From assembly GCA_048882045.1 (NCBI GenBank), contig JBHLRZ010000040.1, positions 1-26,756 of the forward strand: a DNA stretch of 26,756 bases, in the 5' to 3' direction. The notes beneath the pieces were generated by a model. That model saw only the letters and a list, made by a program, of their open reading frames with translations, was not told where the DNA came from and made no database searches. Of this stretch, positions 1,611 through 26,756 are shown in pieces; position 1 is the stretch's first letter, and each line of letters starts with the position of its first letter. Both the position numbers and the translations under genes were made by a program. The DNA is from Candidatus Thorarchaeota archaeon. GTDB lineage: Archaea > Asgardarchaeota > Thorarchaeia > Thorarchaeales > Thorarchaeaceae.

Positions 1611-1656
1611 ACACTCAGAGTCTTCAGCAATCGAATCATCAACCTGAGGTGTGTTC

Positions 1657-2058
1657 TTGAGTTCTTCCAAGAAGATTCGTGTATTAGTAGCAAAACCGGG
1701 GTTGGACGGCCATGACAGGGGTGCTAAGATAGTAGCCCGTGCACTTAGAGACGCAGGTATGGAGGTCATCTATACTGGCCTCAGACAGACCCCTGAGATG
1801 GTTGTGAATGCTGCACTTGATGAAGGTGTCCATTGTATCGGTCTCAGTATCCTGAGTGGGGCACATAACGCTTTGTTTCCTAAGATAATGGAACTCCTGA
1901 AGGCAGAAGGTGCAGAGGACATACTTGTCGTCGGAGGAGGAATCATTCCTGAGGACGACATACCAAACCTGAAGAAAGCTGGAATCTCCGCGATTTTTGG
2001 TCCTGGTACCCCCCTGGATGAGATTGTTGAGTTCATCAAATCCAATGTGATACTCTGA
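1657..2058 (+). CDS. Methylmalonyl-CoA mutase small (cobalamin-binding) subunit
   Basis: DxHxxG motif '[12 protein letters not shown]', 'GLSILSGAH' and 'GGGIIP'. TTG1657 is preferred on SD spacing; GTG1651 is the alternative. Confidence 0.95.
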
Positions 2059-2082
2059 TTCTGACATTGAGAGGGACAAGTC

Positions 2083-3042
2083 TTGCCAGTGACCGAACTT
2101 GTCAATGGAGTTCTGAAAGGTAGACGTAGAGACCTCGCTCGCTTGATTACGCTTATTGAGAACGAGGACAGTGAGGTTGTAGATGCTCTCAGTCAGTTGT
2201 ACCGTCACACTGGGAACGCACATATTATCGGTGTGACAGGACCTCCTGGATCTGGCAAAAGCTCACTTGTCACAAAACTAACAGCAGAATTACGCAGTCG
2301 GAAGAAGACAATTGGTGTTGTCTGTGTAGATCCATCAAGTCCCTTTACTGGTGGGGCTCTTCTGGGCGATCGGATTCGGATGCAAGAACACAGTCTTGAC
2401 AAGGACGTCTATGTAAGGAGTATGGGTACTCGAGGTCATCTTGGAGGTCTCGCTAGAGCAACTTCAGATGCTGTAAAGGCCATTGATGCTTTTGGAAAGG
2501 ACATAATCTTTGTTGAAACTGTTGGAACCGGTCAATCTGAAGTCGAGGTCATTGATATCGCTCATACAGTGTTGGTAGTAGATGTACCGGGAAGTGGTGA
2601 TGACATTCAGGCAATTAAGGCTGGGATAATGGAAATCGCGGACATATTCGTGGTAAACAAGATGGACCAGTCTGGTGTTGACAAGAAGGTCAGCGAAATC
2701 AACGCCATGTTGGATATCGATCCCCGGAAACATGAATGGAGACCTCCGGTCATGATGACCAACTCTCGAACTGGCGAAGGTGTCGATGAACTCGTCGACA
2801 AGATAGCTGAACATCTCAGGTTCCTGAAAAAGAGTGGCCAGTATGAACAGAAGGGTCTCAAACGCAGCAGAGAGGAACTGCAAGAACTCATGAGATACAA
2901 GCTCACTCGCGAGCTTTATCAGAAGTTGGAAGGTCGCCCTGAATATGAAGCGGCTATCAGGAAAATCGCAGAGCGAAAGGAAGATCCCTATACAATGGCT
3001 GAGCGATTGCTGGCTGAGTTTTTGTTCAAAGAGAGTAGGTGA
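2083..3042 (+). CDS. meaB: Methylmalonyl-CoA mutase-associated GTPase MeaB (ArgK/MMAA family)
   Basis: [49 protein letters not shown] and NKMD motifs. Confidence 0.95.
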
Positions 3043-4718
3043 TGAAAATGGGGGATAACGAGAAGCTACGAGAATCACTGAAGAGATGGGAAGAGGAGAC
3101 TGTAGCAAATACTATCGATCGGTTTCCAGAACGAAGGGAAAGCTTCGAAACGATATCTGGACTCCTGACCAAGCGGCTCTATACTCCTGTGGACACTCAG
3201 GAACTGGATTATGAGAAAGATCTTGGATTTCCGGGTCAGTACCCTTTCACCAGAGGTGTACAACCAACTGGCTATAGAGGTCGTTTCTGGACAATGCGCC
3301 AGTATAGCGGTTTCGCCACAGCACGTGTAACTAACGAGCGTTTTCACTTCTTACTCGAACAGGGTCAGACTGGTCTCTCGGTAGCTTTCGATCTCCCAAC
3401 CCAGATTGGATATGACTCTGATGATCCACTCGCTCGGGGAGAAGTCGGAAAGGTCGGAGTGGCCATATCCTCACTTGCTGATGCTGAGATCCTTTTTGAC
3501 AAAATCCCCCTTGATAAGGTCAGTACTTCAATGACAATAAACTCCTCTGCCGCTATCCTTCTTGCAATGTACATTGTTGTAGCTGAGAAACAGGGTGTTT
3601 CTATGGACAAGCTGAGGGGCACGATTCAGAACGATCTGCTAAAGGAATACGTGGCACGCGGAACATACATTTTCCCTCCAAAGCCATCGATGAGGATTAT
3701 CACTGACATCTTCAAGTTCTGCAGCGAAAACATGCCGCTGTGGAATACGATATCCATCTCGGGCTATCACATCCGTGAAGCTGGCTCGACCGCAGTCCAG
3801 GAGGTTGCCTTCACACTCGCTAATGGTATTGCTTATGTTCAGGCTGCCATTGATGCTGGTCTAGATGTTGATGCATTTGCCTCGAGACTGTCCTTCTTTT
3901 TTGGGTCGCACAGTGACTTTCTCGAAGAAATCAGCAAGTTCCGAGCTGCACGTAGGCTCTGGGCAAGAATCATGCGCGAGCGGTTCAAAACAAAAGAAGA
4001 CAGTTCTTGCAAGATGCGGTTTCACACACAGACAGCTGGATGCACACTTACTGCTCAGCAACCTGAAAATAATGTCGTACGAGTCACTCTACAAGCACTT
4101 CAGGCTGTACTTGGTGGGACTCAGTCATTGCACACGAATTCCAGAGATGAGGCTCTTTCACTACCAACTGAAGAATCGGTCCAGATTGCTTTACGGACCC
4201 AACAGATAATCGCTCATGAATCAGGAGTCGGTGACACAGTGGATCCACTGGCGGGATCATACTACATCGAGAGCCTTACCAACACCATTGAGAATGAAGC
4301 GATGGATTATATCACGAAGATAGATGACATGGGTGGAGCTCCGATGGCAATTGAACAGGGTTATGTCCAGAGGGAGATCCACGATGCCGCCTATCAGTTC
4401 CAGAAGAGTGTGGATGAAGGAGGGTGGGTTGTTGTGGGAGTGAATAAGTTCACCGTGGAAGAAGAGTCTCAGTTCGACTATCTGAGAGTAAACCCCGAAG
4501 CTGAGCGAGAGCAGATTAAACAGCTTGAAAGTGTCAGGAAGAAACGCGACAACAAAAAGGTCAAGGAATCATTGGACTCACTTCGACAAGCCGCCGAGAG
4601 TGACACAAATTTAATGCCACCAATCATTGAGGCAGTAAGAGTATATGCCACTCTAGGCGAAGTCTGTGGTGTACTGAGGGAGGTCTTCGGAGAATACAAA
4701 GCTCCCGACATTCTATAG
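3039..4718 (+). CDS. Methylmalonyl-CoA mutase large (substrate-binding TIM barrel) subunit
   Basis: [49 protein letters not shown] and GGTQSLHTN motifs. The true start is probably ATG3048, after SD AGGTGA. Confidence 0.95.
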
Positions 4719-4731
4719 GAGAGATATCATC

Positions 4732-5139
4732 ATGGCTATTGAGAAGATTGATCACATAGGTATTGCAGTTGACAGTATCGACAATTGGATTGCATACTAT
4801 AGAGATGTGCTTGGCCTAGAGTTCAAGGGCATTGAAGAGGTTGCTGAACAGAAAGTACGTATCGCATTCTTCAAGATTGGTGAGAGCAAGATAGAGCTAC
4901 TCGAACCAACCTCGGATCATAGTCCCATAGCCAAGTTCCTTGAGAATCGGGGTGGAGGTATTCATCACATCGCTGTACTTGTGGATGACATCGAAGCCGC
5001 TCTTGAGAAACATCATGATGCCGGAGCTAGATTGATTGACATTGAACCAAGGATTGGCGCACACAATATGCGCATTGCATTCATTCATCCAAAAGCCTCT
5101 GGCGGTGTCCTCATGGAATTGTGCCAGGAACCTGATTGA
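4732..5139 (+). CDS. mce: Methylmalonyl-CoA epimerase (VOC fold)
   Basis: IDHIGIAV, IELLEP, GGIHHIA and FIHPKASGGVLMEL motifs; SD AGGAG; directly follows the mutase gene. Confidence 0.93.
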   Translation: MAIEKIDHIGIAVDSIDNWIAYYRDVLGLEFKGIEEVAEQKVRIAFFKIGESKIELLEPTSDHSPIAKFLENRGGGIHHIAVLVDDIEAALEKHHDAGARLIDIEPRIGAHNMRIAFIHPKASGGVLMELCQEPD

Positions 5140-8417: not shown

Positions 8418-8638
8418 ATTCAACACCTGACCTCTCAACGTATCTCTAAGAGAGATAATAGTGTTTCCCAATTTTGATTCAATCTCAACGTCTAACAAAA
8501 GCGACTGCCAAGACTATAACAAGTTCTCTAACAGCTCCAGCAGCAATTATCAATGTTAAATTCATGTATCCGTGCGGATGAGGACTTGTTGTTCGATAAC
8601 CGTTTGTTTCATATGTTGCTCTGTCTTCATTGAGTTTG

Positions 8639-9655
8639 ATGATACGAGAGATTTTCCTTATTGACCGCAGTGTCTTACAGTTTCATTACAGTAGCGAAGA
8701 ATCACCTAGTGATGATGATATGGCAGTCCTCTCCTCTGGATTCTTGTCTGCAATTCAAGACTTTAGCACTCACACTCGTTCAGATGCATTGGATTCTTTC
8801 TCTACTGAGAATGAGTATTTCTTGTATCTCCGTTTTCCTGACTCAGAAAGAGTACTTGTTGGAGTCTTTGACAGAAAAGCACCTGAAGTATTTGCTCGTG
8901 AAGCCATGGAGAAGATTCAATCGATTCTTCTCCAAGTTGAAATGCCTGAAATTGAAGGTATGCAACTGGATTCAGAAAAGAAAGAAGAAATTTGTCAACA
9001 TATCTCACGAATCAATACTCAACTCTTCAGTGATGAACAATTATCAACTATCGTCATTGATCTTCTAAAGAGTAGAAATGATATTCCATTAGCATTTATT
9101 GTAGATTCTAGTAACAATAAACTGATCACAAGTTTCTCAAGACCCAAACCCCTGTTCAAAGATTCACAGGTACGTGAGTTTCTTCTTGTTCATTCTACTC
9201 TCATGAAGACATTGGAGAATCTAGGTCTGAATTCTCAATATTCATACTTTGTCATAGAGGCTGACGATTATGCTGTAGTTGCTTGCAATGGAGGTCGGCT
9301 ACTCAGTGTTGCCAGTGGTGCAATGAAGATACCCATCGAGAATGTATATGAGGCTGCAACAAGTATCTGCTATGCTGATGTTTTCGACCCTGAGATGGAA
9401 CCAATTCAGGCTGGAACTGTAATTTCTGAAACGACATTTCAAGACGGTAAAATGATCAGCAGTACTGGTATTGGTTTTTCAGGTCCGGCTCAGATTTTTG
9501 TATCAAGTTTGGTGAAGAACGTAGATTCACTATTCAGATCCTTGACCAGACGTCCGTTCAAGGTGTTCACAATCCGCATTATCGGAACTCCCTCGTTTGG
9601 ATTACTACTAAGTCAGACTGTAGATGGACTTAAACTGCAAATCACTCAATTCTAG
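8639..9655 (+). CDS. Longin-domain protein with additional roadblock/longin-like domains
   Basis: N-terminal 'MIREIFLIDRSVLQFHY...VLSSGFLSAIQDFS' matches the Asgard-type longin pattern, followed by two more beta-beta-alpha-beta-beta-beta units. TTG8630 is an alternative start. Confidence 0.7.
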   Translation: MIREIFLIDRSVLQFHYSSEESPSDDDMAVLSSGFLSAIQDFSTHTRSDALDSFSTENEYFLYLRFPDSERVLVGVFDRKAPEVFAREAMEKIQSILLQVEMPEIEGMQLDSEKKEEICQHISRINTQLFSDEQLSTIVIDLLKSRNDIPLAFIVDSSNNKLITSFSRPKPLFKDSQVREFLLVHSTLMKTLENLGLNSQYSYFVIEADDYAVVACNGGRLLSVASGAMKIPIENVYEAATSICYADVFDPEMEPIQAGTVISETTFQDGKMISSTGIGFSGPAQIFVSSLVKNVDSLFRSLTRRPFKVFTIRIIGTPSFGLLLSQTVDGLKLQITQF

Positions 9656-9721
9656 TAAGGGGAAAGTCATTTTAGAGCAAGTGTTGATGAACTAAAAACT
9701 AGAATCAGGATTGCATTACTC

Positions 9722-10444
9722 ATGAGTCAATCAAGCAAGGATGATCAACAGCTCGAGGCTGTATTCTTGTATAGAGGGATTCTGGATGCGTATGATGCGG
9801 TGGGTACAGAACTCATTGGTCCAAAAGTTCTGGATGAGCATGTTCTCCCAAGAATGGTCTACTATGTCCGTGAGTTCTTACCAGAGGTGTTTTCCTACAG
9901 AGCAGACTCCTCTCAACTTGTAAGCGAACTGAAAACGTTCATCTCCGAGTTCCACGAAAAGGTGGATGAGGCACAAGCCAAAGGAACTACTGAAGACCTC
10001 ACAATAGAGGAGATCTGGAAACTACGAGCTGCAATATTTGGATACGAATCTGTCTTCATCAATATCCTTGGTGAGGCTGCTATCAAAGATTATGTTTTTG
10101 TGAGAATGGCTGATATTCTAGCAGCATATCTTCCTGAACAACTTCTTGATCCAAGTGTAAGTTTGGATGATAAGCTTCATGCATATGCAAAATACATCTC
10201 TGACCACAAATTCGTGAAATATGCGCGAGTCACAACTGATGGCAATAAAGTGACAGTAGCTGCTAACTACTGTGCTTTCTCAAGAATCCATGATTCCGAG
10301 GCATATCAAAATCTAAATGTCCGATTTTGCCCTTGGGGAATGATTGGTTCTTCAATTGTGGCGGCTCATGAAGGAAAAGGTGCACTCCTAAAATCGAGTC
10401 TATTCACAACAAGTGGAAGCGTAAGTGAAATCGAAACGAAATGA
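9722..10444 (+). CDS. V4R/MetOD1/Bet3-fold-like protein with a duplicated N-terminal helical module
   Basis: C-terminal 'VTVAANYCAF..H...FCPWG' pattern; ungapped internal repeat of residues 12-55 and 96-139. Confidence 0.6.
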   Translation: MSQSSKDDQQLEAVFLYRGILDAYDAVGTELIGPKVLDEHVLPRMVYYVREFLPEVFSYRADSSQLVSELKTFISEFHEKVDEAQAKGTTEDLTIEEIWKLRAAIFGYESVFINILGEAAIKDYVFVRMADILAAYLPEQLLDPSVSLDDKLHAYAKYISDHKFVKYARVTTDGNKVTVAANYCAFSRIHDSEAYQNLNVRFCPWGMIGSSIVAAHEGKGALLKSSLFTTSGSVSEIETK

Positions 10445-10894
10445 ATGGAGGAAACAAGTCTGCAGTTCTTCTTTGGTTTGCCAATCTCATATATCATATT
10501 GATTCTTGAAGTCATCGTACTTATTGGTCTAGCAATTGGCTGGATCTATGGGTCTCGGAGAATGAAATACAAATTGCATCACAAAGCAGTCTATTTTGTT
10601 GTGTTAGTCCACATATTGACTGTTGGTGCTTGGATGATTCCCAGAGCTCTCGAACGGATTCCCTTTATGCTCGCAAATCCGATTCAAAACTGGTACCAGA
10701 TTGTTCACGATTTGATAGGGATTTTTGCTATAGTACTCGGAGCGAGTCTTGTTGTTGTGTTTCTCATCAGGACTGGGATGCCTCTGAAACTTTTGAAGAG
10801 GACAAGACCTTTGATGTTCCTGACTGTTGGGACCTGGATTATTGCCTTCATTCTTGGAGTTTACTGGTTCCTGTTGGCATGGATACTAATCTGA
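10445..10894 (+). CDS. 4-TM membrane protein, DUF420/cytochrome b-like
   Basis: Four hydrophobic helices with His45/46, His56 and His88. The ATG directly abuts the upstream TGA. Confidence 0.7.
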   Translation: MEETSLQFFFGLPISYIILILEVIVLIGLAIGWIYGSRRMKYKLHHKAVYFVVLVHILTVGAWMIPRALERIPFMLANPIQNWYQIVHDLIGIFAIVLGASLVVVFLIRTGMPLKLLKRTRPLMFLTVGTWIIAFILGVYWFLLAWILI

Positions 10895-14870: not shown

Positions 14871-15128
14871 TTAGCGTTTAAGTGTCCTTCTTCTTCTGGT
14901 CTTCTCCCAAGCTTTCTTAATGTGATGTGCCTGATGGGCTTTTCTTGACCTGTAGACACTGAGGTTCCCGTACCTATTATCCACTTTGATCTTGTTTTGG
15001 TGGTGAACAACTTCTCCAGGTCTTAGTTTTCGACCTAACTTCCTCTCAGCCTTCCATCGATGAACAAGCTTTCCAGAGTCGATGAACCTGAGATATCCCT
15101 GCGCATCTCTGTAGGTCTTCCTAGACAT
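14871..15128 (-). CDS. Small stand-alone HNH endonuclease (HNH_3-like)
   Basis: VHR...LGRKLRPGEVVHH.N..K.DN...NL..H..HH pattern; very basic protein. Confidence 0.85.
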   Translation of the reverse strand: MSRKTYRDAQGYLRFIDSGKLVHRWKAERKLGRKLRPGEVVHHQNKIKVDNRYGNLSVYRSRKAHQAHHIKKAWEKTRRRRTLKR

Positions 15129-15185: not shown

Positions 15186-16244
15186 CTAAGCCTCTGGGGC
15201 AAAGAGATTATTCACTATCGAACTTGCAGAATAGAACTGTGAGACTTCTCCTCCGAAATTCTCCAATGCCTCTCCATAGATCATGTCAAACCGTTCCGCA
15301 AAGTCCTCGACCTTCTCAAGTAGAACTCTGTACGGTTCTTTGGTCAGGAGCATTGAGATGAAGTTATCCCGTTGAGCAAAGAGAATGTCAAAGTCACCAA
15401 CAGAGAGATTGTGGAGCCCCTGTTTGCTCTGTGTAATCTCCTTCACCATCTCCTGAACACCTGTGATTCCTGCGGCTGTAAGGTTCTCATCAAGCTCAAC
15501 TGCAGACTTGAATTTGTGATGAAATACAAGAATCCCAGCTGAATGAATTACATAGAGCTCCAACATCTGTTCGTCCCAATCGAGCTCGTCAAGAGTTGGT
15601 GAGCTAAGAACTGCAATTCCGAGAATGACAAGACCTGTCACAAGGAGTGCAGCTCCGAGAACATAGTACTGTTCACCAAAACTGTAGACAAGGTCGCTTC
15701 GAAGCAAGTATCCAATAAACCCGATTAGTACACCAAAAAAGATCATTCTCATACTACTTCTCACAGCTCCAGTTGTGTTCTTCACAAAATAAGCAAAGAA
15801 TAGGAACAACATTCCGAAAGCCAAAAGAGATGCAGAGAGAGCGAGTAGAGTGAGTAATTCTCTGGGTGCAAAAACGGTTACAATTGCGATCAAGAGAACC
15901 GACCAAGTGAATATATTACGCGTACGATAGGGAAGGATTCTCTCAAGTGCAAGGAAGAATCCCATCAGAGCTATCATCATTGCAATGTATCCGGTCTTTG
16001 TCCATAGTAATGACGCTGGGTCTTCTGTGAAATAGAAGTCAGTCATCATGAATGAGAACGTATTTAGGACCATACCAAGCATAAACACTGCCCAAGCTAG
16101 TCTGACATCTGTGAGTTTTCGTAGTGGGCTTTTCCTCCACTGATTCATGAAAGTACCAAAGAACAGGAGTGAGTAGAGAACTACTGCTGCATGTAATATC
16201 ATGACAAGGTCTCTTGTGAGAGTCAGTTCAGTGAATGGAATCAT
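15186..16244 (-). CDS. Seven-TM protein fused to a C-terminal longin domain
   Basis: Seven hydrophobic segments in residues ~13-214, then 'LYVIHSAGILVFHHKF...LTAAGITGVQEMVKEIT...FAERFDMIY...FGGEVSQF'. SD AGGTGAGG at 16260-16253. Confidence 0.8.
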   Translation of the reverse strand: MIPFTELTLTRDLVMILHAAVVLYSLLFFGTFMNQWRKSPLRKLTDVRLAWAVFMLGMVLNTFSFMMTDFYFTEDPASLLWTKTGYIAMMIALMGFFLALERILPYRTRNIFTWSVLLIAIVTVFAPRELLTLLALSASLLAFGMLFLFFAYFVKNTTGAVRSSMRMIFFGVLIGFIGYLLRSDLVYSFGEQYYVLGAALLVTGLVILGIAVLSSPTLDELDWDEQMLELYVIHSAGILVFHHKFKSAVELDENLTAAGITGVQEMVKEITQSKQGLHNLSVGDFDILFAQRDNFISMLLTKEPYRVLLEKVEDFAERFDMIYGEALENFGGEVSQFYSASSIVNNLFAPEA

Positions 16245-16314
16245 CTCTTTGTCCTCACCTGATTCCTCTGCAATGGATTTCCATCCCTCAATAAGGTTAT
16301 GTGGGTAAATCCAA

Positions 16315-19185
16315 CTATCCCGTGAGTGCTTTGATTTCGTTCACCATACTCTCTTTGGCTGAACTTTCTCCTCTGATCTTATTGATGGCTGATGTCACTG
16401 ATTTGATGGTCTTACTGTTGCCATTCCGTTCAAGAGTCTTTACTGCAAGACTGACAAGTGGTCTTATTGTATCGTGCAACAGTGGATAGACAGATGATGC
16501 GTCGACTGTTTTACCAGGTCTCTTGATGTAATTGTTCATCAGACCGATGACACCATTCACGGAAGATAGACAGAGGTCTGCCATCGGTTGACTCTTCACC
16601 AACTCCTCGCAAATTTGTTGTTCGCATCTATCAATGCTTGAAATAAGGTCCTCGACCAGTTTCAGAGCCGCTGAGAAAACTGCTTCAAAGTGCTCTCGAT
16701 CTCTTACTGGCGCTTTTGACAGATCTTTGAAAGCTTGCAAAGTGATTGAAATTCTCACCTCAAACTTGTCCTCACCAAATGATGAATTCAAATCCCCAAG
16801 TTCTGTAAGAGCGAGTTTCGCCCGTCCGCTTTTCATAAGTTTTCCAAACTCTTTTGATACAAATGATATGTCCTCTGAATCGAATCCAAGAAGCTGCCAC
16901 TTGTTCCTTAGATGGGACATCATACCAGAATAGTCTCCAAACTTGACAGCTCTCTGCATCCCTTTCTGAAACACTCCATTTACAATCCGATGAGCATTCT
17001 CGTCCAAGGATGCTTCACTGATGTTTCGGGTAAGAATGTCAGATGCTGCACCATCACCCAAGGTTTCAGCCAATGATAACGAAATCAGGTCTAGATTATT
17101 GATGTACATAGCAAAATCTAACTTGACAAGTTTCCCTGCTCCAGCTGCAAGTAGATTTCCTAGGGATTCTTCATCCGTTAATTTCCCCTTTTCACTCAAA
17201 ATCATGACTCTACGGCATGCTTTAAGCAATCTTCTTGCAAACTTTCTTGGAGTAATCGTTTTGTCTGAAATCGCTTCTTCGAGAAGTTCAAAGCTGGTCT
17301 TCCTCATTCCCACGGTTCCTGATATTGAATCCTCTATTGCCTTCTCAATCATGGGGCCAATGTCACCCATTTTTTTGAGTTCTTCTAGATTTTTGAGTTC
17401 CTTTGCAATATCGTCTACCTTTACATCTCCCGCTGCAGCAATTTGCTCTTCTATGAATTTTCCGAGACTGTCTGGAACCACAACTGGCTTCTGCCCGGAT
17501 TTCGTCATAGTTGAAACAACTTCTGGTACTGGTTCAAAAGAAGGAATCTCTGAAAGAGGACCTGTAAGAGCAAACAGACCCTGACTAATTGGGTTCTCTA
17601 GGTGTTGATTTGCTAGATCTAACGCAAGTGGGTCAATCCTATCAGTACCAAAGTTCTTGGCTGCAAAGTAGGAGTATGCTAGAAGTAGGTCTAGTCCTCC
17701 AGTCTTGTCAACCTCATACTCTGCCTTGACATGCTTCCACCCATCATCAAGCGCTTGACTCTCAATGTTCCGTCGTCCAGCCACTCCCATCTCTTGTGCG
17801 ACTAATCGGAAGTCGCCTACGACAGGATGGTCAACTTTTCCTCTTAGAACATCAGCAAGAGTGTCATGCATGAACTTCAAGGAGAAAAATCGAGGGTCTC
17901 GAGATAGGTACTGCTTGAATGCATTGAATGGTCCTGGACTGTCAGACGGTTGTTTTAGTGCAAAGAACATTTGATTCAGATGGACCTCATGTGTCTCATA
18001 GTTCGGCATGTCTGCCAGGCAGAGGAGCGTCTTGATTACAGGTAGAGCTCCAGCTCTTGGTTTGTATATTGTCCCATCCAACTCAAACAGTATTCGAGCA
18101 AGGATTCCTGCAACATAATCTGTCATTCCCCTTGGTGCAGTCTTCAATCGATTAGTTGTGAGCTTGGAAATTGTGCCTGCCTTTACTTCAGCTCCAATTT
18201 CCTCAGCTAAATATCTGACATAGATTGGGCTTCCCTGTGCACTCTCTACTATTGTTGTTAGCGCCTCCTTCTCATAGGTTATCCCTTGACTCTCTAGATG
18301 TTTCTTTACAATATCCGTCATCACATCATCTGAGATATTTGGGAGATTGATTGGAGTGAACTTACTTCTCAGATTTAGGGGTAGACGCGACCAGTCCTGA
18401 TCACGTGCAGTGGTGACTATACCGTTCACATCCCTCTCGACAACAGCCTTTGCCAACTCCCGCGATTCAGGAATGTCATCACTGAACAGAATCACTCCTT
18501 CCTTTTCGTGTGTCCTGGCAACATCCTTTGTGTCCCACACAAGTGCTGTATCGTGCTCCTTGTCCAGTTCTTTCCAGATTGCATACATCACTGTTGTCTT
18601 CCCAGATCCTGGAGCTCCGAGGATGACAACATTTTCTCCGTCTTTTGCACTCTTCACTGCTGTATTGATCACAGTCTTTCGAGCTTCTTCTATTACCAAC
18701 ACATCTTCAAGATATGTTGGAAGTCTCCAGACATTCATAATTCGACTTTGTGAATCCGGTATCTCGTAGTAAGAGAGCATCTCATGAAGGATTCCAAGGT
18801 TCTGCAGAACCACTGTTAATTCAGATTTCATTGTGTCTACGAACTGTCCGGTTTCAGGTGCATTTGCTCCGAGTTGGTTCATTGCAGTTGCTACTGGAGC
18901 CGCTACATGCACTCCTCCTTCTCTAACTGCTTCCTTGAGTGAATCCCTGACTGCTGGGTCTTGAATAGCTTCTTTGAAGAAGTCAATCAACTGATCTGGC
19001 CGCACTCTCTGTTTGTCCTCTTGCGCCTTCATAATTGATCCAGCAGCAACAGCCAATATCGCGGATCCTGAACCAATCATAGCGAAGTTAGCTGCCACTG
19101 CTGAAGCTATCCCTAAAACCTTCTTTGCACGTGGACGTTCAGCGAAATAGCTCGTTATTGCATCCTTGAGACCCAAGTTGTTCAC
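16315..19185 (-). CDS. STAND-class P-loop ATPase (NB-ARC/NLR-like), 956 aa
   Basis: Walker A GAPGSGKT (190-197), Walker B VILFSDD, sensor-1 IVTTAR, GSP (318-320) and MHD (439-441); apparently helical N- and C-terminal regions. Start is GTG19185 or TTG19176. Confidence 0.8.
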   Translation of the reverse strand: MNNLGLKDAITSYFAERPRAKKVLGIASAVAANFAMIGSGSAILAVAAGSIMKAQEDKQRVRPDQLIDFFKEAIQDPAVRDSLKEAVREGGVHVAAPVATAMNQLGANAPETGQFVDTMKSELTVVLQNLGILHEMLSYYEIPDSQSRIMNVWRLPTYLEDVLVIEEARKTVINTAVKSAKDGENVVILGAPGSGKTTVMYAIWKELDKEHDTALVWDTKDVARTHEKEGVILFSDDIPESRELAKAVVERDVNGIVTTARDQDWSRLPLNLRSKFTPINLPNISDDVMTDIVKKHLESQGITYEKEALTTIVESAQGSPIYVRYLAEEIGAEVKAGTISKLTTNRLKTAPRGMTDYVAGILARILFELDGTIYKPRAGALPVIKTLLCLADMPNYETHEVHLNQMFFALKQPSDSPGPFNAFKQYLSRDPRFFSLKFMHDTLADVLRGKVDHPVVGDFRLVAQEMGVAGRRNIESQALDDGWKHVKAEYEVDKTGGLDLLLAYSYFAAKNFGTDRIDPLALDLANQHLENPISQGLFALTGPLSEIPSFEPVPEVVSTMTKSGQKPVVVPDSLGKFIEEQIAAAGDVKVDDIAKELKNLEELKKMGDIGPMIEKAIEDSISGTVGMRKTSFELLEEAISDKTITPRKFARRLLKACRRVMILSEKGKLTDEESLGNLLAAGAGKLVKLDFAMYINNLDLISLSLAETLGDGAASDILTRNISEASLDENAHRIVNGVFQKGMQRAVKFGDYSGMMSHLRNKWQLLGFDSEDISFVSKEFGKLMKSGRAKLALTELGDLNSSFGEDKFEVRISITLQAFKDLSKAPVRDREHFEAVFSAALKLVEDLISSIDRCEQQICEELVKSQPMADLCLSSVNGVIGLMNNYIKRPGKTVDASSVYPLLHDTIRPLVSLAVKTLERNGNSKTIKSVTSAINKIRGESSAKESMVNEIKALTG

Positions 19186-20597: not shown

Positions 20598-23500
20598 TTA
20601 TGCTGCTACTGAATCAAGAGTGATTACAAAGCCTGTGGATTTTCCTTTTTCCAATGAAATACTCCAACCATGAGCTTCAACGAGTTTCTTAACAATTGAA
20701 AGTCCAAGACCCGTACCTCTCTCCTTAGTTGTAAATCCTCTTCTAAATATGCTAGATCTTATGTTGGCGGGGATTATAGCTCCATCATTTCTAATAACAA
20801 TTGATGTGCCAGTAGAGAGTTCAATTCTTCTAACTTCAATCTTAGTTGGTTTACCGTGTTCAATAGCATTCACAAGTAAGTTTTGAAATATCTGACTGAT
20901 TCTTTCAGGACTGCCCATGACGTTTGGTAAATCATCAACTTGAAACGAAATTGAGTCTGGCAAAGTTGTTTCCGCAATTTCTCTTACGATTGTATTCAGG
21001 TCAACTTTTTCTTTTTTCTCGATTACCATACCCGCGTCAGCAAGCTCTGCCGAAGCCTGAAGGAGTACTGCAGATTGTTGGGCAATGTTATCGATCCTCT
21101 GAAGTGTTTCTCCATCAGGATTCTTCAACATAATCTTGGCAAGAGAACGTATGTTTTTCATCTTATTCCCAAGGTCATGTGACATCATATGTGCTAATTC
21201 ACTCAACTCTTCCTTTTGTCTTCTAAGAAGGTTATCTGCTATTTTCCAATCAGTGATATCCTGAAATATGCAGTGAGTCTGCTTGAAATTACCATTTTCA
21301 TCATATGCTACTCTCCCATTGAATCTAGCAACTAGTATTGTTCCATTACTCTTTATCATCTCAAACTCAATGTTTCTCACAAATCCATCTGATTTGAAAT
21401 TCGGAAAGATATCGATGAACAACTCTTTAGACTCTGAAGTCATGAAATCGACCAAGTATTGACCGACAATATCTCCTTTTGTATATCCCATTATATCAAG
21501 CCATGCTTGGTTCACATTGACGATTTCACCATCTACATCTAATGTTTGATATCCCAATGGAGCTTTCTCAAATAGGTCTCGAAATCTCTGTTCACTAGCC
21601 TCTAGCGCTCTAAGTGCATTCTTACGCTCAGTTATATCAATTGAATACTCAATCATTTGAATAACTTCATCTTTATCATCAAAAACCGGATAGGCATGAA
21701 CTTCAACATCCCGTGGATTGCCCTTTGCATCAAAGTGAATGTGCTCAGTTACGACCCTACTCTTTGTCCTTGCGACTTCGGAGAGAGGACAAGGATGGTC
21801 CTTTCCAGAACAAGGTTCACTATTCAAATGAGTTATTGAGTAGCAAGTGCCCTCTATTTGTTCGATACCATTTCGCGCAGCGCGATTGGCCATCTGTATT
21901 GTGTAGTCGTTGACATCAACGACATAGAAGGGATGATCCAATGATTCAATCACTTCATTCAGAAATTCCACTTGCTTTTCTAGGGCTTTTTCTACCATCA
22001 ATCTTTGAGAAACATCTCTCGATATTCCAAAGAGTACAGTTGATCCTTGCCATTTCCCCAAAGATATTTGGGTTTCTGCTGGGAGCTCGGTTTCGTCCCT
22101 TCTCATGAGTGGCACCGGGCAAAAAGTAGTCTTACCAGCTATCATTTCTTGCAAAATTGCGGCAGCTTCGTCTCTTCTTTCAACGGGGTGCAGCTGAACA
22201 GCTGGAAGTCCTTGAAGTTCCTCTTCACTGTATCCGAGACGTTCTCTTGCTGATTTGTTTGTGGTTATTATCCGTGTATCTAGGCCGACTATAAAAAGCA
22301 TGTCTTCAACAGTGTCAAAAAGGGTTCTCAGGTTTTCTTCACTAAGTATGAGAGTCTGTTCTGCAATCCTTCTATCTTTTGAATCTAGAAACGTAATAAC
22401 AACTTGTCCAGGTGAACTCTGAAAAGCAAAAATATCAAGTGCTTGAGAAATCTGTCCCTTCTCAAAAGAAACTCGTTCTCCTTTCCACAATGAGCCATTC
22501 TTAGCGATATCCCACAATTCTGAAGGGATTTCTCTATCTTCAAGTGATGGGAACGTTTCCTGAATTGTTCTACCAATCAAATCATTGTGATTCACACCCA
22601 AGATATTATCAGCTGCTAGGTTCTTTTCTACAAGAATGAAATTATTTTCTGAATCTAGTTCATAAATGTGAATACCCATAGAAGCGGAATCAATGACTTG
22701 TCTGAATTTGGTTTCACTTGCTTTGAGATCTTCCTCCGCACTTATCCGATCAGATATGTTTTCCGCCATTCCAATGATAAAAGAAATCTCCCCGTCATTA
22801 TCACGAACAACTGTTACTGTTAGATTAACCCAAATTGTTTTGCCATTCTTAGTGATGTATCTTTTAATCATTTGATAGGTGTTTCTTTTCTTTTCAAGCA
22901 CCTCTTTAAACAATGATGCATCTACTAAAGCATCATCTGGATGAGTGAAATCTGCAATTTTCAATTGTCGAAGTTCTTCAATACTGTATCCTAACATCTC
23001 TTGATATGCAGAATTCGCTTCTATGATATAGTCATCAGTGCCAACCAAAGTCATACCTATTCCAGCTTTTTCGAAGATACTTCGGAATTTTGCTTCACTG
23101 TTTTTCAGAGCTTCTTCTGCGAGTTTCTGCTTAGTAAAGTCCTCAAGAATCCCTATGGTGAATTCCGGATCTCCGCTGTAGTTTCTAACTAGTGAAACTG
23201 TCAAGCGTCCCCATATTTCTCGTCCGTCCTTGCGAATATAGCATTTAATCATGTTATAGCTGTCCCGTTTCCCTTCGATCAGTTCTCTACTGAGACGCGA
23301 TTCAATCTCTCGGTGTTCCTGAGTAGTGATATCGAATGCACTGATTCCTCTCAGTTTTCCACTACTGTATCCAAGCATGTCTTCTAGAGCATTGTTTGCC
23401 TCCAAAATCTCACCAGATACATCTACTCTCGCGACGCCAACTGCAGCATGTTCAAACATTGCTCTGAATCTGGCTTCACTTTCCTGTAATCTCCTCTCAG

Positions 23501-26500
23501 CCAACATGCGCTCTGAGATGTCTAAAGTTTGGATGATGAATCCTCTTGGATTTCCAGAGCTATCAATACCAAGTGGTGCAATAACAGATTCAATATACTC
23601 TTCTCCAGATTTGATTGTTTCAATTGCTGTTCGTTCCTTGAACAAGTCAAAATTAAAGATCCCTTCGGATCTGAGTGTTTCACCAGCAAGCATTTTCTGT
23701 TTGTCATTTTCTGATAGATTTGGGTCACTGAAAATATTGTGTCCTTCGAGAGCATGTTCAGAAGCAATCCCGAAAAGATCCAAACAAGCTTTGTTTGCTC
23801 GGATAAATACGCCTTCCGAATCATATGCATTAATAGCTATTGGAGATGCTTCAATAATCGAGTTGAGGAACTCCTCACTCGACTGCAAATCATCACGCAA
23901 TTTTATCTTTTCTCTGATATCTTCGACCATGCCAATTATGAACTCGGGTTCTCCGGCATCGTTTCTCTTAATTGAAACATTTAATCTCCCCCAAACAATT
24001 TGTCCCTTTTTATCGTAGTAGCGCTTCTCAATTGTATATATGTCCCTAGTGCCTTCAAATAATTCTTGATTTAGCCGAAATTCTTCTTTCCAGTCATCTG
24101 GATGAGTGATCGATTCGACATTTAATCTTGTCAGTTCGTCGTGTGTGTACCCAAGCATATCTACAAGTGCATTATTTACTCGAAATAGACTGCCATCCAT
24201 TCCAGCGTGCGACATTCCAATCGGGGCATGATCAAATATTAGTCTGAATCTAGATTCACTGGCTCTTAGTTCTTCTTCTGCTTGTTTCTTTTTCGTGATA
24301 TCCAATCCTGCGCTAAGGATACTTGAAGAGGTGCCCTCAATTTTAGTAAGCACAACATCATGCCACTGAATCCAGTGAATGTTCCCATTTACATCAAGGA
24401 CGGGACCTGGAACTCCTGGTGTTGTTTCCCTATCTCCCGAGATTACACCAAGCATATAGTTGCGTATCTCATTTTTTTTCCATTCGGGAATGAAATCATC
24501 AATCCAATTCTTGCCAATGATCTCCTCTTGGGGGCGTCCAAGAATTCGGCAACCTTCTTTATTGATTAGTGTTATATTCAGATCGGAGTCTGTTGCAATT
24601 ATCAGAGTGCCTGCCATATCCAAATACGTTTCAGCGCGAACTTTCTCTTCCTCCAATTTGTCTTCTGCTAACTTTCTTTTAGTGATATCCAGGATGGTGA
24701 TAAGAATTGCAGGTCCTTTTTCTAAATCAATCAAGCTTGATCCAAGGATGAGCCAAATCCTCTTTCCGCTTTTATGATATCCTTGAATCTCGAATTGTGA
24801 AGCAATACTCCTCTTATTTGTCAGATTAATGAGATGATTCATGAGTGGTTCTCTTTGGGATTCATCAAGAAGTTCAAACACTCCGTTACTACCTTTTTCT
24901 GTTAGCTCTTCGACATTGTAACCAAATATCCTCGTTATTTTTGAATTACAAAATTGGACCGTCATTGTTTCAGGTTCTAGAATGATAATACCCTCTTCAG
25001 CATTTTCAACAAGAGTTTGATACTTTCGCTCACTTTCTTCAAAGGCTCGCTCTGCATATCGTTGCTCGCTAATGTCTTGTCCTGAACTAAGTGTACCAAC
25101 TATTTCTCCTTCTTCATTTTGCAGCACACTATTTACCCAAGAAATAATCCTCTCTTCGCCCGATTTTGTTTGCACTAATGACTCCGCAATCCTAGTTTCA
25201 TTTAGTTGCCCAGCGATGAGTTCCGAGAAGAATTCTACTGTGTCCTTTTGTATTTTCTGTGGGACAAAAACTTCGAACCAATTTTGCCCAAGAGCCTCAT
25301 CTTTGGAACACTCAAGAACTTCACACCCTTTCCTGTTGATTAGTGTTATATTACCGTCGATGTCTAACGCAACCAAAATGACCTCGGCTATATCCAGATA
25401 TGATTGAGCTCTGTCTCTTTCTGCCCTAAGTAGTATTTCTGCTTGTATTTGTGCAGTCACATCCTCAACCATTCCAATAGTAGCTTGCGGAAATCCTTCT
25501 GCATCTTTTATAAGAGATACAGTCAGCTTTCCCCAAACTGTTTCGTCATCTTTCCTGACATATCGTTTCTGAATTCGGTATTGTGTTTCTTTGGCATCCA
25601 ACATGTTTTGTAATGCCATGTCATCATGTTCTATGTCCATCTGGTGTGTAAAATCATTTGTTTTCATTGTCAAGAGTTCTTCGTTATCATATCCTAGAAA
25701 TTCGCTAAGGGCTTCGTTTGCTTCAAGGACTTGGCCATCCATTGTAACAAGAGCCATGCCTATTCCTGCGCGTTCAAAGATCGCTCGAAATTGAGATTCG
25801 CTCTCTCTAATTGCACTTTCTGCCTTCACCCTTTCGGAAATGTTATGACATATGTGAACAACGCCAGCTGGATTTCCATCCTCCTCGAAAATTGGTGAAG
25901 TCGTGACCAAGTAGGGCTCACCAAGATTAGGATCAAGAATCTCCACCGTAGCTTTTTCTCCGGTTTCCATCGTGATTATGTGAGGACATCCAGGAAATGG
26001 ACTATCTGACTTATGCATCACTTCATAACATGCCCTGCCAATCAAATCTTCACGACTACATCCTAGCGCATCAGCCATGGACTTGTTTGCTTTTATTATA
26101 CGAAAGTCATTATCTAACACAGAAACGAGATCCGGGAGGGAGTCGAAGGTATTCCTCCATTCTCTCTCAGCTAATTTCACCTCATTCTCAGCTTTTTGAC
26201 GCTCTGTGATATCTCTTATAATAACAATAATGCTCCTTTGATCCTCGTGAAGATCCAGATCAACGGTTAACCATTTATCGATTGCTTCCAGACTGAGTTT
26301 GAAATCAAAAGACTCTCTCTCTCCAGTTGCCCTGACCTCTGATGAGAACGTGTGAAATGGCTCCATGAAACTGGATGGGAACACAACATCTGCGGGTTTT
26401 CCAAGAATTTCCTTAGGATGAGGCAGATGTGGATTTCTATCAGGAGAATGAAATTGGATAAATCGATTCTGTTCATCAAGTACATAGATTTGGTCGCTCA

Positions 26501-26756
26501 TGGATTTTACTAAAGTCCGGTATCTTTGCTCACTTTCGAAAAGAGCACGCTCAGTCTTTCTACTTCTGACAACATTTCTGATGTAATGCCCAATTTCAGT
26601 GAATAGACTCTCCAAGTCTTCACCCTTTTCTAGGTAGTAATCAGCGCCCAAATTAAGGGCCTGAATTGCCACCTCCTCTCGACTTCTTCCAGTAAATATA
26701 ATGAATGGTGTGTTGCACCCACGGTCTCTTAGCCACTCAAGAATTTGAAGACCATT
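20598..26756 (-). CDS. Giant hybrid sensor histidine kinase: REC (partial) - 14 PAS - HisKA - HATPase_c (5' end outside window)
   Basis: Frame is open to the window edge (NGLQILEWLRDRGCNTPFIIFTGRSREEVAIQALNLGADYYLEKG, the second half of a receiver domain). Fourteen PAS/PAC units end in DIT-like motifs, followed by the H-box SHDLGN, N-box NLLVNAIEHG and G2 GTGLGL. Confidence 0.95.
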   Translation of the reverse strand, partial: NGLQILEWLRDRGCNTPFIIFTGRSREEVAIQALNLGADYYLEKGEDLESLFTEIGHYIRNVVRSRKTERALFESEQRYRTLVKSMSDQIYVLDEQNRFIQFHSPDRNPHLPHPKEILGKPADVVFPSSFMEPFHTFSSEVRATGERESFDFKLSLEAIDKWLTVDLDLHEDQRSIIVIIRDITERQKAENEVKLAEREWRNTFDSLPDLVSVLDNDFRIIKANKSMADALGCSREDLIGRACYEVMHKSDSPFPGCPHIITMETGEKATVEILDPNLGEPYLVTTSPIFEEDGNPAGVVHICHNISERVKAESAIRESESQFRAIFERAGIGMALVTMDGQVLEANEALSEFLGYDNEELLTMKTNDFTHQMDIEHDDMALQNMLDAKETQYRIQKRYVRKDDETVWGKLTVSLIKDAEGFPQATIGMVEDVTAQIQAEILLRAERDRAQSYLDIAEVILVALDIDGNITLINRKGCEVLECSKDEALGQNWFEVFVPQKIQKDTVEFFSELIAGQLNETRIAESLVQTKSGEERIISWVNSVLQNEEGEIVGTLSSGQDISEQRYAERAFEESERKYQTLVENAEEGIIILEPETMTVQFCNSKITRIFGYNVEELTEKGSNGVFELLDESQREPLMNHLINLTNKRSIASQFEIQGYHKSGKRIWLILGSSLIDLEKGPAILITILDITKRKLAEDKLEEEKVRAETYLDMAGTLIIATDSDLNITLINKEGCRILGRPQEEIIGKNWIDDFIPEWKKNEIRNYMLGVISGDRETTPGVPGPVLDVNGNIHWIQWHDVVLTKIEGTSSSILSAGLDITKKKQAEEELRASESRFRLIFDHAPIGMSHAGMDGSLFRVNNALVDMLGYTHDELTRLNVESITHPDDWKEEFRLNQELFEGTRDIYTIEKRYYDKKGQIVWGRLNVSIKRNDAGEPEFIIGMVEDIREKIKLRDDLQSSEEFLNSIIEASPIAINAYDSEGVFIRANKACLDLFGIASEHALEGHNIFSDPNLSENDKQKMLAGETLRSEGIFNFDLFKERTAIETIKSGEEYIESVIAPLGIDSSGNPRGFIIQTLDISERMLAERRLQESEARFRAMFEHAAVGVARVDVSGEILEANNALEDMLGYSSGKLRGISAFDITTQEHREIESRLSRELIEGKRDSYNMIKCYIRKDGREIWGRLTVSLVRNYSGDPEFTIGILEDFTKQKLAEEALKNSEAKFRSIFEKAGIGMTLVGTDDYIIEANSAYQEMLGYSIEELRQLKIADFTHPDDALVDASLFKEVLEKKRNTYQMIKRYITKNGKTIWVNLTVTVVRDNDGEISFIIGMAENISDRISAEEDLKASETKFRQVIDSASMGIHIYELDSENNFILVEKNLAADNILGVNHNDLIGRTIQETFPSLEDREIPSELWDIAKNGSLWKGERVSFEKGQISQALDIFAFQSSPGQVVITFLDSKDRRIAEQTLILSEENLRTLFDTVEDMLFIVGLDTRIITTNKSARERLGYSEEELQGLPAVQLHPVERRDEAAAILQEMIAGKTTFCPVPLMRRDETELPAETQISLGKWQGSTVLFGISRDVSQRLMVEKALEKQVEFLNEVIESLDHPFYVVDVNDYTIQMANRAARNGIEQIEGTCYSITHLNSEPCSGKDHPCPLSEVARTKSRVVTEHIHFDAKGNPRDVEVHAYPVFDDKDEVIQMIEYSIDITERKNALRALEASEQRFRDLFEKAPLGYQTLDVDGEIVNVNQAWLDIMGYTKGDIVGQYLVDFMTSESKELFIDIFPNFKSDGFVRNIEFEMIKSNGTILVARFNGRVAYDENGNFKQTHCIFQDITDWKIADNLLRRQKEELSELAHMMSHDLGNKMKNIRSLAKIMLKNPDGETLQRIDNIAQQSAVLLQASAELADAGMVIEKKEKVDLNTIVREIAETTLPDSISFQVDDLPNVMGSPERISQIFQNLLVNAIEHGKPTKIEVRRIELSTGTSIVIRNDGAIIPANIRSSIFRRGFTTKERGTGLGLSIVKKLVEAHGWSISLEKGKSTGFVITLDSVAA

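Follow-up and report, generated by a model that had tools for sequence, protein, structure and literature searches.

A seven-helix membrane protein with a C-terminal longin domain, widespread in Asgard archaea, as a candidate sensor-adaptor for small GTPases or other P-loop NTPases

Eukaryotes couple membrane sensors to longin domains at the lysosome and in trafficking. The polytopic lysosomal nutrient sensors GPR155/LYCHOS, with GATOR1, and SLC38A9, with Ragulator-Rag, are coupled to longin or roadblock platforms that control small GTPases, and longin and roadblock proteins build such platforms by pairing through helix alpha1 and strand beta3. Longin platforms of the exchange-factor type, namely TRAPP Bet5/TRAPPC1 and Trs23/TRAPPC4 (Sybindin family) and the first longin domains of Mon1-Ccz1 and Fuzzy-Inturned, are soluble subunits of multi-protein complexes. 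Asgard genomes encode dozens of small GTPases, longins and roadblock proteins, and to our knowledge almost nothing is known of what activates these GTPases or where in the cell they are activated. Here we describe a gene in a 26,756-nucleotide (nt) contig of a Candidatus Thorarchaeota archaeon (JBHLRZ010000040.1, assembly GCA_048882045.1; the whole stretch is called the window below). It encodes a 352-residue protein, P0001, in which a seven-helix membrane domain is followed on the same polypeptide by a longin domain.

Soluble longins and GTPase-longin fusions have been reported from Asgard archaea (10.1101/2020.10.19.343400; PMC10933270), and they belong to the same expanded longin superfamily as the P0001 tail. 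In the portions of these two reports available to us, Asgard longins are fused to GTPases, TRAPPC3 or two-component domains, and a seven-helix membrane fusion like that of P0001 is not among them; the longin homologues that Tran et al. (PMC10933270) list are from Loki and Odin, with none from Thor. The literature searched, partly available as excerpts, gave no account of a seven-helix-longin protein. Asgard '7TM proteins' and a structural cluster of 'class C GPCR' type appear, without details, in a 2026 preprint (10.64898/2026.10.28.762692), and they may or may not include the P0001 family.

The reading frame of P0001 runs from an ATG to a TAG codon. The sequencing runs listed as containing this stretch are all DNA from sediment metagenomes, with no RNA data set among them. 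P0001 alone had no meaningful match in Pfam or NCBIfam. When 1.84 billion cluster representatives were scanned exhaustively with HMMER, 623 relatives passed E<=1e-3 and 185 of them passed E<=1e-10; the majority are 340-380 residues long and align from the first helix to the last residue. Judged from these homologues, P0001 is a genuine gene and not a chance open reading frame (ORF).

Hydropathy of P0001 gave seven hydrophobic segments, and an AlphaFold2 model built on a 35-sequence alignment (mean predicted local distance difference test score, pLDDT, 79; predicted template modelling score 0.68) placed seven long helices in the same domain. For conservation, charge counts and profiles we used an alignment of 61 diverse members of the family. 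Their predicted inner loops carry on average 9.8 Lys+Arg against 2.8 in the outer loops, and the excess lies on the inner side in every one of the 61. Because of this uniform bias, the N-terminus is placed outside and the tail in the cytoplasm. Together the results show that P0001 has seven transmembrane (TM) helices, an external N-terminus and a cytoplasmic longin tail, bearing out the architecture seen in a first-pass annotation of this DNA.

The most conserved stretch of the family is the linker at residues 215-226, in which W223 is invariant (61/61), E220 is kept in 55/61 and P216 is also conserved. Within the membrane domain, Glu at position 101 on the inner end of TM3 is kept in 55 members and G178 in 90%. 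Further conserved positions lie towards the outer face: D69 (47/61) and Y71 on the outer end of TM2, the pair G85-Y86 where TM3 begins, and D184 after TM6 (38/61). The conservation of the linker, together with that of E101 on the inner face, argues for a mechanical coupling of bundle and tail and against a bundle that serves only as an anchor.

The tail has longin topology over residues 227-348 of the model. DSSP assigns strands to residues 227-234, 239-244, 279-282, 285-291 and 295-301, and helices to residues 253-271, 306-328 and 340-348. In structural comparison by VIA-align, every listed match to the tail alone was a longin (Z 10.6-12.9, root-mean-square deviation (rmsd) 2.7-3.5, 115-127 residues), so the C-terminal longin domain recognised in the first reading of the sequence is upheld by both fold and matches. 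The best was the CPLANE chain 7q3d_C (Z 12.9, rmsd 2.7, 118 aligned), followed by VAMP7 and Sec22 (12.4 each), AP sigma chains (11.2-11.7, AP2 sigma at 11.7), synbindin (11.5), sedlin (11.3), the SRX domain (10.7) and BLOC-3 (10.6), with AP mu-N also among the matches. Foldseek rows for the tail named AP sigma, Mon1/Ccz1 and TRAPP (template modelling score by target 0.6-0.73). Nothing in the PDB reached E<=1e-3 by Foldseek, the rows being still all longins or seven-TM proteins, and no roadblock chain stood among the best 50 structural matches listed.

Sequence comparison pointed the same way. Against the PDB, a tail-only profile ranked Trs23 (E 1.4e-3) and TRAPPC1 (E 1.7e-3 and 2e-3) highest, followed at 0.15-0.24 by a roadblock (Robl_LC7) chain (0.15) and then Mon1, and the full-length profile returned only noise (Sm D2 and ribonuclease inhibitor, E about 1). 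A few family members match the Pfam families Fuz_longin_1 (4.7e-5) and Sybindin (1.3e-3). In the same genome, the tail aligns by hhalign (96%, E 4.5e-9) with a soluble protein that joins a longin to a winged helix-turn-helix (wHTH) domain and itself passes the Fuz_longin_1 gathering score. Each of these links is marginal alone, and together they are consistent; on present profile evidence we therefore assign the tail to the longin domains of the TRAPPC1/C4 and Mon1/Fuzzy type. The tail resembles the longins of TRAPP, Mon1-Ccz1 and Fuzzy in fold and topology, in weak but repeated profile matches, in a Gly conserved in the beta1-beta2 hairpin and in a predicted two-fold alpha1/beta3 dimer. It differs from those soluble subunits in sitting behind seven TM helices and in forming a predicted homodimer.

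Other classes of longin-like domain were considered for the tail and set aside. Longin SNAREs have an N-terminal longin, a SNARE coiled coil and a single C-terminal anchor. P0001 has its membrane domain first and no coiled-coil segment, and membership with VAMP7, Sec22 or Ykt6 was rejected. Roadblock domains begin with an N-terminal helix and, unlike longins, have no third C-terminal helix, according to Tran et al. (PMC10933270); the P0001 tail has just two short turns before beta1 and has two C-terminal helices, and a roadblock/LC7 (MglB-like) identity was rejected. In the GTPase-activating proteins (GAPs) FLCN, NPRL2 and SMCR8, the longins carry a conserved Arg finger, and their beta1-beta2 region has a GP motif (PMC12290439). 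The 61-sequence domain alignment has no conserved Arg, and the conserved Gly of the beta1-beta2 hairpin, G237, is followed by Ile, Leu or Val and not by Pro; a GAP-type longin was thus rejected.

Two copies of the tail, predicted together from the 61-row alignment, gave interface scores (ipSAE) of 0.43, 0.43 and 0.41, compared with 0.00 for the best of three controls; the mark was 0.42, which in calibration 20 solved pairs out of 30 attained, as did one single chain out of 23. Contacts agreed to at least 97% among the three runs, and partner pLDDT was at least 83. The predicted interface covers residues 251-285, with alpha1 (a small-residue motif of L255, G259 and G262) and beta3 arranged about a two-fold axis. 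Two stretches of low confidence in the monomer model, residues 250-262 and 269-276, fall within this region, which fits a modelled surface that needs a partner. Thus two longin tails are predicted to pair through alpha1 and beta3 as a canonical homodimer, resembling the two-fold platform dimers of TRAPP Bet5/Trs23, Mon1-Ccz1 and MglB.

The P0001 family extends far beyond the window. A word-indexed search returned 54 close relatives at 42-90% identity, all labelled 'hypothetical protein', the named ones being from Thorarchaeota. The few HMMER relatives with names belong to Odinarchaeota, 'Asgardarchaeia' and Promethearchaeota, and genome contigs extend the family to Hermodarchaeota. ESM Atlas searches by features and by shape returned only unnamed Asgard clusters. 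At E<=1e-10 the 61-member profile matched 395 of 400 Asgard genomes, a count whose weaker matches do not distinguish the membrane part from the tail only, and it matched all 90 high-quality genomes at the same threshold; among the matches listed, full-length members occur in at least 11 of 33 Asgard families. Many matches in the Asgard genomes were flagged with one in-frame stop. In those rows the match is at least as long as the open frame, and we read the stops as the profile overrunning the gene end rather than as broken genes. Taken together, these homology searches indicate that the family is Asgard-wide and is without an existing family annotation. The genome of P0001 itself carries a second seven-helix-longin copy, at 44% identity, on a different contig. 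Tandem duplicates occur in several Thorarchaeota (loci L010, L022, L024, L028 and L032), and such copies are possible heterodimer pairs.

The same tail is also found behind a different membrane domain. Two proteins from other Asgard metagenome contigs, P0197 and P0192, have 11-12 hydrophobic segments resembling the major facilitator superfamily (MFS; MFS_1 match 53 bits), followed by a longin tail that aligns with the P0001 tail profile at 99.8% (hhalign, E 4e-28), and they share the E..W juxtamembrane motif. At the level of these alignments, the fusions show the longin tail to be a portable cytoplasmic module for polytopic membrane proteins.

Indirect evidence for a GTPase link comes from soluble relatives of the tail. 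Profile counts in the genome of P0001 were 22 for the tail longin, 32 for Ras-like domains and 15 for Robl_LC7. Of 20 soluble tail paralogues, five lie within 3 kb of a Ras-like domain, compared with 1.03 expected at random (P about 0.003). A 652-residue protein of this genome (contig C6:107708-109666; L052:1209-3167, minus strand) carries an Arf/Roc-type GTPase at residues 122-253 and a longin at residues 373-497 that aligns with the tail profile (hhalign 95.5%, E 1.4e-8). Another paralogue overlaps the start of a gene for a 283-residue Arf-like GTPase, and a third opens a three-gene row whose last gene encodes a 169-residue Ras-family GTPase. The fusion or adjacency of homologous longins to Arf/Ras-like GTPases in this genome makes a GTPase link of P0001 plausible on sequence grounds. 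Other paralogues have different neighbours. The closest soluble paralogue is a 622-residue tetratricopeptide-repeat protein with a C-terminal longin (contig C3; L003:13-3352, plus strand), and 41 nt after its gene begins one for an EF-Tu-type GTPase (GTP_EFTU plus domain 2). On contig C37 (L004:3-2920, minus strand), tandem genes of 348 and 425 codons, each with an N-terminal Fuz/Mon1-type longin and a C-terminal TrmB-like winged helix, are followed by a gene for a ParA/MinD-type ATPase. What can be said most safely is that longins of this type occur alongside P-loop NTPases.

The architecture combines a seven-helix domain and a longin domain of known kinds, and from it we infer the function of P0001. 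The reading we favour, though with somewhat less than even confidence, is that P0001 is a dimeric sensor or adaptor in one polypeptide that presents a longin platform of guanine nucleotide exchange factor (GEF) type at the membrane. P0001 would be a polytopic plasma-membrane protein whose longin is tied to TM7 by the P..E..W motif. Two tails would pair through alpha1 and beta3 into a two-fold platform, and at the membrane this platform would dock a P-loop NTPase, either a small GTPase of Arf/Ras/Rag-like type or a different one, acting as a recruiter or an exchange-type regulator and not as a GAP. The bundle, through E101 and the linker, may set the availability of the platform according to a cue within the membrane, an ion or a small molecule. 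By general analogy the logic of polytopic sensor and longin resembles that of the lysosomal sensors GPR155/LYCHOS and SLC38A9, and the MFS-longin proteins may echo the transporter-type sensors among them. In the eukaryotic cases the sensor and the longins are separate polypeptides and the longins are of GAP type, whereas in P0001 the two are fused and the GAP signature is absent.

Several observations weigh against a receptor for small GTPases. The resemblance of the bundle to solved receptors is barely above what helical bundles score in general. The dimer score exceeds its mark only narrowly, and part of it may stem from similarity to longin dimers already solved. P0001 has no extracellular domain, its outer segments being 12 (the N-terminus), 16, 3 and 10 residues long, and no ligand site was identified in it; any ligand would therefore bind within the bundle or the membrane. 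A survey of 44 related loci, 8 kb on each side, found no conserved GTPase or roadblock gene and a GTPase-motif ORF at one locus of the 44, and the contigs of both copies in the genome of P0001 contain no Ras-like or roadblock match. The paralogues next to an EF-Tu-type GTPase and a ParA/MinD-type ATPase suggest a partner class wider than Ras-like proteins. Longin folds also work independently of GTPases, as in SNAREs and the adaptor sigma and mu subunits. The missing GTPase neighbour is weak counter-evidence, since Tran et al. (PMC10933270) note that Asgard GTPase genes as a rule share no operon with the genes of their putative regulators.

The one locus with a small GTPase nearby (L041, in the metagenome-assembled genome 'archaeon isolate Dive96') has a split or fragmentary family member, two longin-type ORFs of 356 and 262 residues nearby, and a 178-residue GTPase-motif ORF six genes off.

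In the VIA-align comparison, where by the tool's own note the helical-bundle background is about Z 13-14, the best solved match to the bundle was the adhesion G-protein-coupled receptor (GPCR) ADGRL3 (Z 15.0, rmsd 4.0, 205 residues), followed by CD97 (13.5), a de novo designed GPCR-like bundle (13.2) and other GPCRs (10-12.6); a ceramidase (11.9) and rhodopsins (10.6-10.7) also matched. Because the background reaches such values, we do not take the likeness as homology and read the modelled bundle as a common seven-helix arrangement that comes closest to GPCR cores. Neither P0001 nor its family members showed a sequence relation to any 7tm/GPCR family in Pfam. The first-pass annotation had called the protein functionally GPCR-like and had compared LALERI at the end of TM3 with the (D/E)RY motif of class A receptors. 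The motif is present, at residues 98-103, and the outside-in orientation agrees with that of GPCRs. In class A GPCRs the Arg of (D/E)RY is the invariant residue, and a basic residue at the membrane boundary is expected anyway. In the P0001 family the pattern is the reverse, with the Glu conserved and position 102 variable (26 Arg, 11 Lys and 9 Tyr among the 61 members). The paralogue of the same genome has E-L here, and the E-R pair is no equivalent of (D/E)RY. TM7 ends SSP..LDELDW, without NPxxY, and there is no 7tm_1 match; class A membership was rejected on these grounds. A true evolutionary relationship to eukaryotic GPCRs, including a TM3 that ends in a DRY-like switch, would explain the topology, the cytoplasmic position of E101 and the run of GPCRs headed by ADGRL3. 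We nevertheless regard it as very improbable, given the silent sequence searches, the variable Arg, the lack of NPxxY in TM7, and the scores of the designed bundle, ceramidase and rhodopsin, which point to a common arrangement. P0001 thus may work like a receptor-to-GTPase relay without belonging to any GPCR family.

The remaining alternatives concern what the bundle and the tail do. P0001 may be a 'transceptor', in which the bundle is a transporter or channel that moves or binds a small solute or ion and the tail regulates this activity or reports occupancy to the cell. This alternative stays alive because the same E..W tail follows MFS-type domains of 11-12 helices, and it gains from the lack of an extracellular ligand-binding domain and from the conserved D69, Y71, Y86 and D184 on the outer face and E101 on the inner face. 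It is, in our estimate, an unlikely competitor: neither Pfam nor NCBIfam relates the seven-helix domain to a transporter family, the best structural matches are receptors and not carriers, and the MFS fusions are equally compatible with a sensor. We give still less credence to a trafficking or scaffold adaptor that works independently of GTPases, with a tail that recruits longin, roadblock or coat-like proteins and a bundle that serves mainly as an anchor or oligomerisation unit. VAMP7, Sec22 and AP sigma do match the tail as strongly as GEF-type longins do, the longin-type and roadblock matches of the genome (22 and 15) could pair with it, and the tandem duplicates of several Thorarchaeota suggest heterodimers. 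However, anchoring would need no more than one helix, whereas all seven, with their conserved polar residues, have been retained phylum-wide; P0001 has no SNARE motif, and its sequence affinities are with the TRAPPC1/Trs23 and Fuz/Mon1 types.

The sensor-adaptor reading can be extended to the family as a whole. In that form, which we consider doubtful, the family would be a near-universal Asgard receptor class in which a seven-helix sensor directly controls an Arf/Rag/Ras-like GTPase through a built-in dimeric GEF-type longin platform, with the MFS-longin proteins as a parallel transporter-type branch. A near-universal longin embedded in the membrane is a candidate input, and a candidate membrane address, for the Asgard GTPase network. 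If the tail recruits or activates a GTPase, the coupling of polytopic sensors to longin platforms would be older than eukaryotes. On the extended reading, the seven-helix-longin protein would be a forerunner, in a single polypeptide, of the logic by which eukaryotic receptors act on GTPases and nutrient sensors on longin complexes. Should the GTPase link prove wrong, this is still a large conserved family without a Pfam or NCBIfam model, and it deserves one.

Other families of seven-helix proteins were compared with P0001 and rejected. As the first-pass annotation had noted, TM7 of P0001 contains no lysine. The family has no conserved Lys column in this helix either, the highest count in any TM7 column being 9 of 61; because TM7 lacks the Schiff-base lysine, P0001 is not a retinal protein, and a microbial rhodopsin was rejected. 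Hydrolases of the PAQR, AdipoR and alkaline ceramidase type have the opposite topology (N-terminus in, C-terminus out) and a His3-Asp zinc site, whereas the P0001 membrane domain has a single His, H18. Receptors of the 7TMR-DISM type likewise fuse a polytopic seven-helix input to a cytoplasmic signalling module in one polypeptide, with a kinase, cyclase or phosphatase as output where P0001 has a longin. They carry an extracellular DISMED-type domain, and P0001, with an external N-terminus of only about 12 residues, has none. P0001 does not match PF07695, two of its 61 relatives do so weakly (1.1e-3), and a search for this family found nothing over the cut-off in the genome or in 14 control genomes. 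Weak single-member matches to Bax1-I, DUF5985 and holin were mutually inconsistent and were treated as hydrophobic noise.

Features of the P0001 gene, in window coordinates
Feature	Position	Strand	Basis
Whole gene, 352 residues (P0001): seven-helix membrane domain and longin domain	15186..16244	-	ORF list, homologues
Shine-Dalgarno-like GGTGAGG, 9-15 nt 5' of ATG	16253..16259	-	read from sequence
TM helix 1, residues 9-38	16131..16220	-	hydropathy, AlphaFold2
TM helix 2, residues 47-71; conserved D69-F-Y71 at outer end	16032..16106	-	AlphaFold2, family alignment
TM helix 3, residues 77-103; G85-Y86 at outer end, E101 (LALERI) at cytoplasmic end	15936..16016	-	AlphaFold2, family alignment	
E101 codon; Glu in 55/61 diverse members	15942..15944	-	family alignment
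TM helix 4, residues 111-125	15870..15914	-	hydropathy, AlphaFold2
TM helix 5, residues 128-156	15777..15863	-	hydropathy, AlphaFold2
TM helix 6, residues 160-181; conserved G178	15702..15767	-	AlphaFold2, family alignment
TM helix 7, residues 191-214; without lysine	15603..15674	-	AlphaFold2, family alignment
Juxtamembrane linker, residues 215-226, motif P216..E220..W223	15567..15602	-	conservation
Longin domain, residues 227-348, beta1-beta2-alpha1-beta3-beta4-beta5-alpha2-alpha3	15201..15566	-	AlphaFold2, structure and profile matches
Predicted homodimer interface, residues 251-285: alpha1 (L255..G259..G262) and beta3	15390..15494	-	dimer prediction, conservation

The gene directly upstream of P0001 on the same strand (16315-19185, minus) encodes a 956-residue P-loop NTPase, its stop lying 70 nt from the P0001 start. 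Around residues 171-267 this protein has sub-threshold Pfam matches to nSTAND_NTPase5, nSTAND3 and NB-ARC, and its C-terminal domain is not recognised by Pfam. The linkage of a STAND-like NTPase to a seven-helix-longin gene is seen only here and in the closest relative (L005). Just downstream of P0001 lies an 85-residue HNH_3 endonuclease-like ORF (14871-15128, minus), whose position is kept in four genomes (the window, L005, L006 and L007); in the window it is followed by an ACR3/SBF arsenite-type carrier and an ArsR regulator. Loci of the paralogue group keep a gene row of their own, made of unrelated genes: one of about 397 codons (cluster 3), one of about 171 codons (cluster 4) and an ABC-ATPase-like gene (cluster 1). 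We read this row as inherited synteny within Thorarchaeota.

Farther away, a giant sensor kinase of more than 2052 residues (20598-26756, minus) runs past the window end, with about ten PAS domains, a C-terminal HATPase_c domain and a partial receiver domain at its cut N-terminus. Three consecutive ORFs of 341, 240 and 149 residues without a Pfam family lie at 8630-10894 (plus). A methylmalonyl-CoA mutase cluster at 1651-5139 (plus) comprises a B12-binding subunit, a MeaB GTPase, a large subunit and a glyoxalase-family (epimerase-like) protein.

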